Origin: Planctomycetota bacterium
GTDB taxonomy: Bacteria; Planctomycetota; MHYJ01; WSZJ01
DNA length: 64,000 bases
Direction: 5' to 3'
Assembly (NCBI GenBank): GCA_038060895.1
Contig: JBBTCT010000024.1
Span: forward strand, 96,001-160,000
Program-made: the position numbers and the translations under genes
Shown here: piece by piece, positions 15,028 to 23,492 of the stretch
How the letters are laid out: every line of letters begins with the position of its first letter
How positions within the stretch are numbered: position 1 is the first letter of the stretch
The notes under the pieces: model-generated
Database searches by the model: none
Seen by the model: the letters and a program-made list of their open reading frames with translations, nothing else
What the model was told of the DNA's origin: nothing

Positions 15028-16455
15028 ATGGCACCGACGCATGTGCTCGTCGTGGACGACGAACCCACGATTCTGGCGCTGTTGAAACTCTCCCTGTCCA
15101 AAGCCGGCGCTCTCGTCGAGGTCGCCGACGGTCCCGCGGCGATCCGGCTCCTGGGCGAGCGCGCGTTCGACTTCGTCCTCTCCGACACGCAGATGCCCGG
15201 GGCTGACGGGCTCGAGGTCCTCGAAGCCGCGAAACGCCTGTGCCCGAACGCGACGCGCGTGCTGATGTCCGGCGATCCCGGCGCGCTGGCACGCGGAGAA
15301 GACCCCGATTCGCCGGCTCAGCACCTCCTGGCCAAACCGATCGACCTCGGCCGTTTACACCGGCTCCTTCAAGCCAGCACCCGCCCGGCCTTCCGCCCGG
15401 ACGAACTCCTGGAATCCATTCGCCGGCGCTACTCGAGCTCGTCGGACGCCGTCTTCGTCAAGGACACGAAGGGCCTGTACCTCTTCATGAATACGACCGG
15501 CGCCTCGCTCCTGCTGCGTCTCGTGCCGGAGATCGTGGGGCGGCTGGACTCCGAGATTTTCGACAGGGCGACGCTGATCGAAGAAGTGCGCGCGTCGGAC
15601 CAGGAGGTCCTACGCAGGCGCCGTCACTATCTTTACGTCAACGCGACGCGCAACCCGGGCACCGCGCGGACGTTTCTGAGCGCGAAGTTGCCGGTGTTCG
15701 ATGCGCGCGGCGAGATCCGCGCGATCGGTTGCCTGAGCCGGGACGTCACGGAGCTGATGGGGCCCGACCCGGGAGATCGATCGGAGCAGATCGACGCGCT
15801 TCTGCGGGACCTGCAAGAAGCGTCCTCGATCCTCGCGGCCGGCGCGAACGCGATCGCGATCGAGCGGCAGGAGGTCGAGCGCTGCCTCCAGGAGCCGCGG
15901 GAAGAGAAGGCGATGACCGGGACGCGGGGGCACGGACAGAGAATCGGGACCCCCGGCGATCCGGGGGCCCCGATGGCGCAATTACCTGCCGATCCGGATC
16001 GTCACTCCCAGGTGGCCGTGGCCGTGGCTCGTGTGCCGGTGAGTCGCCGCGTGAATGTGCCAGCCGCCGTTATGAAAAAAGTGCCCGCAGCCGGCGCGGT
16101 GGACGTGACCGGCGTGGTGAACCCAGCGCGCGCCGTCCCACGAGTGGCCGCAGTGGGCATCGTGGACGTGGCCGTGGGTGACGTGGACGCCGTGGTGGCC
16201 GTGACCAGCGATCGCGTAGACGTGGTGCGCGGGGTGAAGGTGCCAGCCGCCGCTGTGGTAATAGTGCCCGCACCCCGGGCCGTGGCGATGCCGGTTGATG
16301 ACGATCCACGCACCTCCGTCCCAGCAATGCCCGCAGCCGTCGTCGTGGACGTGCACGCCGCCGCCACCCCCACCGGTGTGGTGAACGTGACGGACGCAAC
16401 CCGTAACGGCGTAAGCGAGGATGAGCGCAATGAACAGGACTCGCATGAGCGATAA
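15028..16455 (+). CDS. response regulator REC + PAS domain; the frame beyond ~15910 is probably read-through
   Basis: VLVVDDE, VLSDTQMPG, LAKP; VFVKDTKGLY PAS; last ~180 codons are antisense to the His-rich gene. Confidence 0.7.
   Translation: MAPTHVLVVDDEPTILALLKLSLSKAGALVEVADGPAAIRLLGERAFDFVLSDTQMPGADGLEVLEAAKRLCPNATRVLMSGDPGALARGEDPDSPAQHLLAKPIDLGRLHRLLQASTRPAFRPDELLESIRRRYSSSSDAVFVKDTKGLYLFMNTTGASLLLRLVPEIVGRLDSEIFDRATLIEEVRASDQEVLRRRRHYLYVNATRNPGTARTFLSAKLPVFDARGEIRAIGCLSRDVTELMGPDPGDRSEQIDALLRDLQEASSILAAGANAIAIERQEVERCLQEPREEKAMTGTRGHGQRIGTPGDPGAPMAQLPADPDRHSQVAVAVARVPVSRRVNVPAAVMKKVPAAGAVDVTGVVNPARAVPRVAAVGIVDVAVGDVDAVVAVTSDRVDVVRGVKVPAAAVVIVPAPRAVAMPVDDDPRTSVPAMPAAVVVDVHAAATPTGVVNVTDATRNGVSEDERNEQDSHER
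15943..15974 (-). terminator. hairpin terminator of the His-rich gene
   Basis: ATCGGGACCCCCGG-CGAT-CCGGGGGCCCCGAT just past the stop at 15982. Confidence 0.6.
15982..16446 (-). CDS. His/Cys-rich repeat lipoprotein, putative metal binder
   Basis: Signal peptide with lipobox VTGC; four HxHxxxCGH units each followed by a Trp-containing motif; GGAGG RBS. Confidence 0.8.
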   Translation of the reverse strand: MRVLFIALILAYAVTGCVRHVHHTGGGGGGVHVHDDGCGHCWDGGAWIVINRHRHGPGCGHYYHSGGWHLHPAHHVYAIAGHGHHGVHVTHGHVHDAHCGHSWDGARWVHHAGHVHRAGCGHFFHNGGWHIHAATHRHTSHGHGHLGVTIRIGR

Positions 16456-20519: not shown

Positions 20520-21098
20520 TTACTTCGTGCCTGCCGGTGCTGCCCAGCCGGAGGTCGTCGAGCCGAGCAGTGCATCCACGACGCCCTGCGTCGGGGATCC
20601 GATCGCGAACACATCGACGCGGCCCTGGAAGAAGAGCACGTTGATGTCGTCGCCGGTCCCGTGGTTCGGGGTGCCGGCCTGGAGGTCATCGCAGCCCATG
20701 GGCAGGTCCGGCGGAGCGCCGTCCGTGATGCCCGTGGCCGTCCAGGTGTAGGTCGCGCCGCCGATGGGGGTGTACGAGCCGGCGCCGGTGATGCCCTTGT
20801 AGTGAGTGCCCGTGCCGCTCTTGCCGACGACCGCGCAGCGGAACAGGTTGCCGTCCGTCGCCATGTCAGGCCGCCAGAGGAGACCGAACCATGAAGCGGC
20901 GCCCGGGGTCGGGTAGGCCTTGAACTTGCCTTCGTAGAGGGCGTAGTAGATGCCCATCTGCTTCAAGCTGTTCTTGCAGTCCGTCTTGCGGCTGGACTTT
21001 CTGGCGGCGGCGAGGGCGGGGAGCAGAAGAGCTGCCAGGATGCCGATGATGGCGATAACGACGAGCAGTTCGATCAGGGTGAAGCCTTTTTTACGCAT
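20520..21098 (-). CDS. prepilin N-terminal methylation domain protein (DUF1559/H-X9-DG-like)
   Basis: [48 protein letters not shown]. Confidence 0.92.
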
Positions 21099-21435
21099 GG
21101 GTGAGTTCCTTGGAAAACGGATGCCAGTGGTTGGGTTGAGAGACGCAGTCACTGCGGGTTCGGTTGTCGTGGCCGCCTCGGAAGGATCTCGAAGTCCGGT
21201 TCCCTCGGCGCCCGACGTGGGGGCGGTCCGGGAAGCAGGCTGTCGTGGTGCGTCCCCGTTCGGGGAAGGGAGTCAGGGCGTCGCTGGCCGGCGATCCGAA
21301 TGCTCGGAATGAATGAATCGGATGAGATTGGGTGGGTGGCCTCGGCGACGACGTGTACGCCCGTTCGCTCAGATCTTCCAGTCGCGGTCCTGCGTGCCTC
21401 ATTTCTCGCAAAGATTGGGTTTAAGATCTTGAAGT

Positions 21436-21463
21436 ATTTTACGGAAAAAATGGATCAAGTCAA
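21436..21463 (-). promoter_or_regulatory. putative sigma70 promoter of the prepilin gene
   Basis: TTGACT-16 bp-TAAAAT in an AT-rich patch. Confidence 0.5.
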
Positions 21464-21627
21464 GGGAATTCATCGATTTTCACACGCTTCCGCCGACGCG
21501 GACGGAAGGCTAGTGGTGAGTCAGCTTTGATTCCGGCGGTTGCGTCCGAAGGACGCAACCGGTGGAATCAAGCGTGTCGAACCGCTAGAATTCCCCCCAA
21601 CGCGCCCATCACCCAAGGGAGAGATTC

Positions 21628-21735
21628 ATGCGATTCGCCGCCATCCTCCGGAAGGCCCTCATGCTCTTCGCACTCGCCAGCCTTGCCACCATGGCCGTGG
21701 GTTGCCCGCACGGCCGTCACTTCCACCATCACTAG
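21628..21735 (+). CDS. 35-aa micro-lipoprotein, mature part CPHGRHFHHH
   Basis: Manual translation MRFAAILRKALMLFALASLATMAVGCPHGRHFHHH*; AAGGGAGAG RBS; TAGAAT at 21586-21591; below the ORF-track cutoff. Confidence 0.72.
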   Translation: MRFAAILRKALMLFALASLATMAVGCPHGRHFHHH

Positions 21736-21749
21736 GCCGGGCCGCGCGG

Positions 21750-23492
21750 CTACTTCGCCGTCACCCAGACCGGGTTGGTCATTCCCCACGGCTTGAGCCG
21801 GCCGTGAGTGACCACGTCCGCCTCGAACCTCTCCCCCTCCGCAATCACCACGAACCAGCTGTCCCGGTCCGGGGAGAGGTTGACCTTCTGTTGGGCGAGC
21901 GGCTCGAGCGTCTTCACGGTCGTTCCGCGTTCAATCAGCAGGAGCCGCTTCACCGGAGCCCATGCCGGCGTGCGCAGCCGCAGCGTGAGTTCGACGGGGC
22001 CTCTGAGCTGGGAGCCGACGACCGAAACGCCCTTCGCGTCCTCGACGTCGAGCACCGGGCCGCATGAAATGACCAGCCGGTGCGCGCGGACGGCGGCGAC
22101 GAGCTCGGCTTCCGGCGGAAAGCCGTCCTTCCCCGTGATCACGTAGTTGCGCGGCCACCCGCCGTCCTCCGCGGCGAGCTTGTGCGAATCGGAGTTGCCC
22201 GTGGCGGTAAGGCGGTAGCCGGCGTTGAGAAGCGCGTACCAGTCGCGGAGGAGGAGGCCGACCGCGCGCGGGTCGGACTTGCCGTTCAGGATCTCCATTG
22301 CGTCGAAGCCGAGCTCGAAGCCGGCCTCGGGGCTCTTGAGCGTGGCCGGGTCGAACTTCATGATCTCGAAGTACCCGATGCCGCCGTCGCGGCCGTGATT
22401 GACCTGGAGCACGCGGCGTTCGCGCGGAGCGCGGGAGTCGGCGCGGGCGAGAAGAGCGCCGACGGGCATGTCGGTGACGTCGACGGCCTCCGTGAGCGGG
22501 AAAACATTGAAGTGCCCGATTCGGGGCTTCTGCGAAGTGATCTCGTCGCCGATCGACGAGCGGATCACCTTCTCCGCCCCGAGCGCCCGGATCGCAGGGC
22601 CGAAGTCGGTCGCGCGGTTGTGGTCGGTCGAAACGATCCACTCGACGCCCTCGGCCAGGTAACCGGTCACGCGATCCGGCAGCGGAATCCGCGAATCGGG
22701 GCTCGGGTCGGAGTGGACGTGGAAGTCGGCGCTGATCATTCCCGGGGTGTCGAAGGCGCGCTTCGGCTCCAGCGTCCGCGGGTCGCACGCCCACGGGCCG
22801 ACCTCAGCGGTGGCGACCTCGAATTCCGGCCCGCGCGACGCGGTGATCGTGAATGTCCCATCAGCGGGCAGGAGCAGCTCCGCCGTCCCGTCCGCGGTGA
22901 ACGCGCCGCGCCCCGCCGCCCGCGCGAGCCAGTCGGGGCCGAGGCGTGAGGCGCCCTTGACGAGGATCTTCGCCGGGCCGCCCGTCCGCACTTCGATCCT
23001 CCGCATGGGCGCGAGCCGGATGTTGCCGATCTCGAAGTCGTCGAGGTTGGCCGAGTTCACGTCCTTCCCCGCGGCAACGGAGATGCGCGCGCCCTCTTCG
23101 AGTTTCGCTCCCGCCAGAGGCACCCAGGCCGCGTGAGTCGTGCTTCCCTCGGGCCCGGCGTAATCGTTCAGGCGGGCGACGGCCACGCCGTTGATGCGCA
23201 CTTCATCGACGTAAGCGCCCTCCTCGTATTCGCGGTTGTTCGCGTCAACGACGTGACGCACGTCCGCGACAAGTCCCCAGAACAGCCCCGCGGGAAGCGC
23301 GGGCAATTTCGGGATCTCGGCCGACCATTCGGGGCCCAGCGGTTTCTTCGGCGAGAAACTATCGGCTGCGTTGTCGCCGAGGTGGTGCTGCCCTGCGTCG
23401 AGCAGGACAGGGCCCGGGCCGGGCGCCGGCGGCTCGGCGAGCGCGATGGCAAACAAGGTTGAAGCGACGCTGACTGTTCGCGGAATCCGCAT
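21750..23492 (-). CDS. CehA/McbA-like PHP-domain metallohydrolase, exported
   Basis: ADFHVHS, STDHN, GHFNVFP, NHGR, GNSDSH, TNPVWV. Confidence 0.88.
   Translation of the reverse strand: MRIPRTVSVASTLFAIALAEPPAPGPGPVLLDAGQHHLGDNAADSFSPKKPLGPEWSAEIPKLPALPAGLFWGLVADVRHVVDANNREYEEGAYVDEVRINGVAVARLNDYAGPEGSTTHAAWVPLAGAKLEEGARISVAAGKDVNSANLDDFEIGNIRLAPMRRIEVRTGGPAKILVKGASRLGPDWLARAAGRGAFTADGTAELLLPADGTFTITASRGPEFEVATAEVGPWACDPRTLEPKRAFDTPGMISADFHVHSDPSPDSRIPLPDRVTGYLAEGVEWIVSTDHNRATDFGPAIRALGAEKVIRSSIGDEITSQKPRIGHFNVFPLTEAVDVTDMPVGALLARADSRAPRERRVLQVNHGRDGGIGYFEIMKFDPATLKSPEAGFELGFDAMEILNGKSDPRAVGLLLRDWYALLNAGYRLTATGNSDSHKLAAEDGGWPRNYVITGKDGFPPEAELVAAVRAHRLVISCGPVLDVEDAKGVSVVGSQLRGPVELTLRLRTPAWAPVKRLLLIERGTTVKTLEPLAQQKVNLSPDRDSWFVVIAEGERFEADVVTHGRLKPWGMTNPVWVTAK

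Follow-up and report, generated by a model that had tools for sequence, protein, structure and literature searches.

A short open reading frame and its surroundings

The window, i.e. the whole stretch of 64,000 nucleotides analysed here, belongs to contig C24 of a Planctomycetota genome denoted G000; the other genomes of the same genus are denoted G001 to G007. On the forward strand, the window contains an open reading frame (ORF) of 35 codons that starts with the ATG at 21628, ends with the TAG stop codon at 21733-21735, and is predicted to encode the precursor of a very small lipoprotein. The ORF and the features around it are the following:

15982..16446, reverse strand: gene of a 154-aa His/Cys-rich lipoprotein of an uncharacterised family, recognised by lipobox patterns, 5.2 kb from the small ORF
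21508..21590, no strand assigned: copy of a repeat of about 78 nt that forms a hairpin and is dispersed in the genome (BLAST, alignment); the copy includes the palindrome 21537-21561 and lies outside the conserved gene unit
21586..21591, forward strand: TAGAAT, a -10-like hexamer and possible promoter element (sequence)
21615..21623, forward strand: purine-rich Shine-Dalgarno (SD) site with a GGGAGAG core, 4 nt from the ATG (sequence)
21628..21735, forward strand: coding sequence, 35 codons and TAG stop (sequence, orthologues, codon-position differences, dN/dS)
21628..21702, forward strand: predicted SPII signal peptide, residues 1-25, with a basic n-region, an h-region, and Ala-Val-Gly before Cys26 (sequence, lipobox patterns)
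21703..21732, forward strand: predicted mature peptide of 10 residues, consisting of a Cys to be lipid-modified, Pro-His, and a His-rich tail, with 5 His in total (sequence, alignment)
21736..21744, forward strand: 3' flank of 9 nt, identical in G000 and G004 despite different downstream genes (flank alignment)
21750..23492, reverse strand: convergent gene of a CehA/McbA-family metallohydrolase with a hydrophobic, signal-like N-terminus (NF038032, 132 bits, cut-off 80)

The original prediction claimed a hidden 35-codon gene at this position, encoding a lipid-anchored, His-rich peptide. The ORF and the peptide quoted for it match the sequence exactly, and the two start signals named, a ribosome-binding site and a TAGAAT box, are both present at the positions listed above. 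The gene is not hidden, as the exact peptide is already found in the protein sets of NCBI, ENA, and Logan. Three of the first nine residues of the peptide are basic, an uncharged stretch follows, and five of the nine residues behind Cys26 are histidines. The G+C content at codon positions 1, 2, and 3 (0.69, 0.46, and 0.83, respectively) fits a coding frame, as expected in a genome with 65.8% G+C. A consensus promoter scan calls no promoter on the forward strand at the ORF; in G002, a TAGACT is located at about the same distance from the start codon as the TAGAAT of G000, within the 55 nt of 5' flank that can be aligned. DNA of the window is detected in groundwater and aquifer runs. Exact RNA contigs from two aquifer metatranscriptome runs cover positions 21103-21258 and 22226-22400; neither spans the ORF, and both are uninformative either way.

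The palindrome reported upstream of the gene (two arms of 11 nt separated by 3 nt) is located exactly where it was claimed, at 21537-21561. A role as an operator or gene-specific regulatory site does not stand, however, since the palindrome forms the core of a dispersed repeat that is absent upstream of the orthologues in G001, G002, G003, and G004. A BLAST search with the repeat in G000 gives 17 rows, corresponding to about 11 full-length copies, one of them 99% identical; other copies include C11:92056-92132 and C10:25809-25884. Dozens of copies occur in the relatives within the genus, and three genomes from a different family of the same class carry the repeat as well. For the fold, 17 copies from 8 genomes were chosen among the best matches: these form one long hairpin of 26 pairs, 10 of which have compensatory changes, with strongly conserved internal loops. 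The repeat has no match in Rfam. Its ends are inverted CTAG, and the TAG of TAGAAT is the final triplet of the repeat. The element could be a MITE- or REP-like DNA element or a multicopy structured RNA.

The exported metallohydrolase claimed to lie next to the ORF is the convergent CehA/McbA-family gene, whose model score and signal-like N-terminus are given above. The same arrangement is found in G002, where the CehA/McbA protein has 75% identity over 578 aa. Both genomes have a common block that consists of a response regulator, the 154-aa lipoprotein, a PDZ/HEAT-like gene, the small ORF, and the CehA gene, with differing genes in the middle; sharing one locus, G000 and G002 count as a single observation for the evidence from gene neighbourhood. 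In G001 and G004 the small ORF is located 3' of an HMG-CoA-lyase-like gene and in G003 3' of an FG-GAP/ASPIC gene; in all three, a gene for a 182-aa GAF protein is convergent with the small ORF. In G004, a gene for a Metallophos-family lipoprotein follows 27 nt downstream, and the small ORF appears to be inside an operon. The GAF-gene loci of G000, G002, G006, and G007 hold no further copy of the ORF, and a single copy exists in the genome. Downstream, a convergent gene comes next in G000, G001, G002, and G003, and four of the five genomes have no following gene on the strand of the ORF. Conservation extends from the ORF over about 28-55 nt of the 5' flank and 9 nt of the 3' flank. The gene is autonomous, i.e., its sequence is kept in three different neighbourhoods. 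Sensor kinases are abundant around the locus. Neither a metal transporter nor a metal regulator was seen near the ORF in the genomes examined, and no metalloenzyme adjoins it in G001 and G003.

Conservation, selection, and range of the family

A six-frame search of 12 genomes of the order detects the ORF in five of the eight genomes of the genus (G000, G001, G002, G003, and G004, with E <=4e-4) and in none of the four genomes outside the genus. A sixth, weaker match with the same junction motif exists in G005; no match is found in G006 (85% complete) and G007 (87% complete). A homology check for short ORFs in relatives, with lack of conservation speaking against the gene, had been part of the original prediction, and the ORF is conserved in the five genomes named. 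The related ORFs of these five genomes have 35-39 codons. All six related ORFs start with ATG, are preceded by an SD site of GGAG type 5-10 nt upstream, reach the stop codon 10-14 codons past the Cys, and have a G+C content at the third codon position (GC3) of 0.77-0.90.

The differences between the orthologues follow the reading frame. The pairwise comparisons of G000, G002, and G004 give 8/1/16, 10/1/16, and 11/2/16 differences at codon positions 1/2/3, with a dN/dS of 0.08-0.14 (pS 0.58-0.67, pN 0.13-0.16), synonymous sites being nearly saturated. The 11 residues from Gly25 to the C-terminus are identical in these three genomes and encoded by differing codons. Identity between the same genomes is 72-77% in the ORF, versus 23-50% in the flanks (ungapped comparison). 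Gly-Cys is invariant in nine of nine aligned sequences, as are the Cys itself, the Pro, and the first His. The n-region has 2-3 Arg or Lys within the first nine residues in eight of the nine sequences (the shorter sequence of G005 has two Lys) and is followed by 12-16 uncharged residues. In all members, position -3 is occupied by Ala, Thr, or Cys and position -1 by Gly.

To delimit the range of the family, a profile built from the six sequences was compared with 1.84 billion representative proteins. Seven representatives match with E <=0.001, five of which are family members with a length of 30-37 aa. Two of these five are new with respect to the genomes; behind the Cys, one has 10 residues with 7 His and the other 11 residues with 6 His. 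A look-up of the clusters adds a variant that differs in one residue, as well as a version of the same ORF that was called with an earlier start. Two other matches among the seven are long, unrelated repeat proteins that share the word Ala-Gly-Cys-Pro and nothing else. Within the class (56 genomes), the profile matches the six ORFs from which it was built, with scores that follow by construction, and the next best match has E = 0.006. Across 401 genomes sampled evenly from the phylum, eight matches reach E <=0.001, three of them members of the genus. The other five (E 1.6e-4 to 8.1e-4) are signal peptides of unrelated proteins, none of which has the tail. The family is thus found in one Planctomycetota genus only, as far as the searched genomes of order, class, and phylum and the protein representatives are concerned; the range across collections relies on called proteins, and contig collections with uncalled ORFs may hold further copies.

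Searches with the peptides in Pfam and NCBIfam return no family, with matches at E 0.11-1 on the level of the signal peptide. One of these, a 12-bit match to a Shiga-toxin B model, is meaningless. In Rfam, the region 20900-22100 has two matches, both far below the gathering scores. The ESM Atlas holds the sequence without a model, and its best feature score (0.88) is below the useful range.

We note that the pattern by itself carries little weight. Our own pattern, which combines a lipoprotein signal, an ATG-initiated ORF of 22-60 codons, and a tail of at most 20 residues, matches 12 ORFs in the 5.4-Mb genome versus 5 in a reversed-sequence control, i.e. about twofold. With an SD site in addition, 2 ORFs in the genome compare with 1 in the control, and with at least four His in the tail, 1 (the ORF studied here) compares with none. 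An SPII-like pattern in tiny ORFs is therefore weakly above chance, and we judge the gene to be real on account of its conservation, not of the pattern count.

From the comparison of the sequences, the gene is very probably real and kept by selection. The low dN/dS, the conserved start codon, SD site, Gly-Cys, and Pro-His, the differing neighbours, and the lack of any longer relative together argue against a chance ORF and likewise against the stump of a longer lipoprotein gene. The latter point concerns the possibility, raised with the original prediction, that the ORF might be the truncated 5' end of a longer gene: all five true matches among the 1.84 billion representatives are 30-37 aa long. 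The gene illustrates cleanly how comparative genomics alone can validate so short a gene.

Predicted processing and possible role of the His-rich tail

The genome encodes the enzymes of lipoprotein processing, namely Lgt (matches at 4 loci), LspA (2 matches), and Lnt (1 match), all over the curated cut-offs. A LolA-like domain is present, and LolCE-like permeases score below the family cut-off. The ORF fits our transcription of the published lipobox patterns, and its usage of residues matches that of 177 candidate lipoproteins of the genome, which were collected in a crude screen. Gly is the commonest residue at position -1 (109 of 177), Ala is found at -3 in 36, and Pro at +2 is rare (3 of 177), which makes the invariant Pro-His of the family stand out. 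Pro at +2 is reportedly able to retain lipoproteins of E. coli in the inner membrane. The claimed SPII-type signal, with its basic n-region, hydrophobic core, and AVGC, is of textbook form and belongs to a genuine gene under selection, and the predicted product is probably processed as a lipoprotein.

The precursor of 35 residues would be inserted in the cytoplasmic membrane so that its N-terminus faces the cytoplasm and its tail the outside; the export route is assumed, as the precursor is too short for co-translational targeting. Lgt would add a diacylglycerol to Cys26, LspA would cleave after Gly25, and Lnt would acylate the new N-terminus. Since all three enzymes are encoded, the product is most likely triacylated and 10 residues long, and it would expose its five His on the periplasm-facing surface of the inner or the outer membrane. 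If the product is as the sequence implies, few natural lipoproteins would be shorter. Bacteria are known to make very small lipoproteins, for example the enterobacterial entericidins EcnA and EcnB as well as LptM. The family resembles these in its short precursor with an SPII-type signal and in a mature part that is short and unstructured; it differs in that this predicted mature part is shorter still (10-14 residues) and in belonging to another phylum. The similarity does not extend to the sequences: the NCBIfam models of LptM and YgdI/YgdR match with E 0.11-1, at the level of the signal peptide only. No description of such a peptide was found in the literature, the full text consulted lying largely outside subscription journals. 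The most fitting description is that of a new family of predicted lipoproteins, all of them very short.

The tail encoded in G000 consists of His, Pro, Arg, and Gly together with one hydrophobic residue. Across the family, the tails have 4-7 His in the 9-13 residues after the Cys and are devoid of Asp, Glu, Met, and a second Cys. An HHPH motif occurs in four distinct family sequences; HxxHxH, the polyhistidine-triad motif, is common to the tails of G000, G002, and G004 and absent in the other members. His-rich segments that bind metals are found in the streptococcal polyhistidine-triad lipoproteins and in the tails of nickel chaperones. HHPH is the core of the GHHPH repeats of vertebrate histidine-rich glycoprotein, which bind Zn and Cu in the protein and also as synthetic peptides of the repeat (PMC5372734). 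All of these resemble the tail in that clustered His, partly combined with Pro, is the sole type of ligand. They are, however, parts of large folded proteins; the likeness is one of composition, not of homology, and the motifs are not family-wide here.

Packed on the membrane, the tail would most likely bind divalent transition metals (Zn, Ni, Cu, Co) with modest affinity, and could then act as a tethered metal buffer or relay for exported metalloproteins. Exported metalloenzymes adjoin the ORF in two contexts, namely CehA/McbA (G000 and G002) and the Metallophos lipoprotein (G004). The linkage of the ORF to exported metallohydrolases and to larger His/Cys-rich lipoproteins is weak and inconsistent, and with nine free residues the tail may not reach past the membrane surface. 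For the tail, composition and the loose gene neighbourhood point tentatively to a role in metal binding, with the odds somewhat short of even. For the reading as a whole, i.e. a tiny processed lipoprotein whose metal-binding tail serves as a tethered buffer or relay, we estimate a probability of about 0.4. We infer the translocation, lipidation, cleavage, and location of the peptide, as well as its metal binding and physiological role.

Should the product be as predicted, it would show that the ordinary lipoprotein pathway can by itself, with no tailoring enzyme, convert a 35-codon gene into a functional lipopeptide. The peptide would then also offer a simple, testable model of metal capture at a membrane surface.

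The alternative that fares best, although we regard it as rather unlikely, keeps the processed lipoprotein and dispenses with the metal. The peptide would be a pH-sensitive cationic patch for anionic envelope polymers or for a partner protein, or else a sorting or occupancy signal of the lipoprotein pathway. The evidence for the gene and for its signal holds equally here, and His-rich tails can also act in pH-dependent or electrostatic roles. An invariant Pro-His followed by residues that vary in length and order is what a recognition motif with a loosely constrained basic tail would look like, and G001 and G003 have no metal-related gene context. Such a tail would not need nearly as many His, however, with Arg scarce and Lys absent, and no partner gene is conserved.

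An uncleaved single-pass membrane protein (N-terminus in, C-terminus out) that modulates a membrane complex in the manner of MgrB or KdpF is unlikely. Small single-pass regulators of this kind, including MgrB, KdpF, AcrZ, and similar proteins, resemble the family in size, in having one hydrophobic helix, and in their narrow distribution. A length of 30-39 residues, a positive N-terminus, a short polar tail, the restriction to one genus, and the abundance of sensor kinases around the locus would all suit such a regulator. These regulators lack a lipobox, whereas all nine sequences have Gly-Cys at the exact lipobox position and at the right distance from the n-region, a feature that a plain membrane anchor leaves unexplained. 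Lgt and LspA are present, and a conserved partner gene is missing for this alternative too.

Far less probable is a hydrophobic peptide like a type I toxin that is held in check by an antisense RNA. Small size, hydrophobicity, narrow range, intergenic position, and movement between loci agree with it; the gene is, however, single-copy, its SD site is strong and exposed, the copy in G004 is apparently part of an operon, and a conserved lipobox with a His-rich tail is atypical of such toxins. Very improbable as well is a cut by signal peptidase I at the same site, in which case the 10 residues would be released as an unanchored peptide that begins with Cys, a soluble metal ligand of thiol plus imidazole. 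The small residues at -3 and -1 in all members do fit the -3/-1 rule, but Lgt as a rule modifies the Cys that follows such a lipobox at +1, and nothing else of this kind is known.

A precursor of a lipidated, ribosomally made and modified peptide (DAG-RiPP), with the modifying enzyme encoded elsewhere, has still less in its favour. DAG-RiPPs are made by ribosomes and mature through the lipoprotein pathway, and some of them bind copper (PMC13056109). The family resembles them in that a ribosomal peptide with an SPII signal would yield a membrane-bound lipopeptide, and a role in metal binding has been proposed or shown for some DAG-RiPPs. In contrast to the family, DAG-RiPPs need an adjacent modifying enzyme (an MNIO with a partner) and core motifs that contain Cys. 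The genome does have one MNIO gene; this sole match to PF05114 is on contig C22, however, whereas the ORF is on C24, no RiPP-modifying enzyme is found among the neighbours in five genomes, and the core has neither a second Cys nor any other known modification motif. The ligand would be plain histidine here. If the product is as predicted, it would widen the recent DAG-RiPP idea to unmodified peptides, and if it binds metal, it would act as a lipopeptide ligand that needs no tailoring.

Equally remote is an untranslated origin of the conservation, at the level of RNA or DNA, by chance, or as a His-codon attenuation leader: the near-chance frequency of the SPII-like pattern and a tail full of His codons may be cited for it, yet the differences pile up at codon position 3 (16 of 25-29) and spare position 2 (1-2), the ORF is kept while its flanks diverge, there is no credible Rfam match, the signal peptide is conserved, and the next gene is convergent in four genomes, whereas a leader of the histidine-operon type has an attenuator and biosynthetic genes behind its run of His codons on the same strand.

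Other His-rich and very small lipoproteins

A second His-rich lipoprotein had been claimed at a distance of 5 kb, and this is the 154-aa protein listed above. It has 36 His among 138 mature residues, and its orthologue in G002 is encoded 1.9 kb from the small ORF. The family is characterised by two repeats, four invariant Cys-Gly-His motifs, and a conserved Trp; it is found in seven of the eight genomes of the genus, with several paralogues each. Neither a Pfam nor an NCBIfam model matches the protein, and with a mean pLDDT of 41 its AlphaFold model is poor. The protein probably binds metal in the periplasm. No ORFs for very small lipoproteins are found in the flanks (3 kb to either side) of the five matches to this family in G000; the scan of these flanks returned just the genes of the His-rich lipoproteins themselves, at three of the five places.

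Two further ORFs lie close to genes of the 154-aa family and are candidates, each seen in one genome. In G006, a different lipobox ORF of 33 codons with a His-rich tail of 13 residues (C77:9863-9961, reverse strand) is located about 30 nt after the orthologue of the 154-aa gene. In G004, an ORF of 71 codons (C19:16370-16585, forward strand) encodes a His/Pro/Arg-rich lipoprotein about 1 kb from a paralogue of the 154-aa family. A second family, likewise of very small lipoproteins (34-38 codons), is represented in G000 by C7:16887-17000 (L073:1516-1632). Its tail has Pro-Pro and a His/Arg-rich end, its gene lies directly 3' of a gene for a Ser/Thr protein kinase, and it is found in five of the eight genomes of the genus with E 6e-11 or better. 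The two very small families may be related, as the ORF of G005 that resembles the family studied here sits at the locus of the second family.

A repertoire of His-rich lipoproteins is thus indicated in an uncultured groundwater lineage. A much bolder version of the metal-binding reading, which we consider distinctly unlikely, would take this repertoire as a functional whole. The genus would make enzyme-independent ribosomal lipopeptides, i.e. lipid-anchored His-tags of 10-14 residues, within a wider His-rich set that comprises the 154-aa family, the second very small family, and the variants of G004 and G006. Together they would coat the periplasmic face of the membrane with imidazole ligands, capture scarce Zn, Ni, Co, and Cu from groundwater, and pass the metal to exported metallohydrolases, thus forming a membrane-tethered metallophore without a biosynthetic cluster.

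Several minor observations concern the same genome. The single MNIO gene (PF05114) is located at C22:327945-328724, so that the genome may have, at another place, a RiPP cluster similar to those for methanobactin or bufferin. An ORF for a response-regulator/PAS protein (15028-16455, forward strand) meets its first stop codon at 16455 and runs antisense through the whole gene of the 154-aa lipoprotein. Its orthologue in G002 aligns over 292 residues, with a frame that ends before the lipoprotein gene; the ORF in G000 looks like the result of a lost stop codon or of an assembly error. Upstream of the small ORF, a DUF1559 prepilin-like gene (20520-21430, reverse strand) is duplicated, together with 276 nt of its upstream DNA, at C29:60186 to about 61100; the duplicate has 80% identity in the upstream DNA and encodes a nearly identical protein. 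Transcripts from a sigma-70-like promoter at 21463-21436 (reverse strand) would start with a leader of some 330 nt, and the exact RNA contig at 21103-21258 lies in the DUF1559 region.
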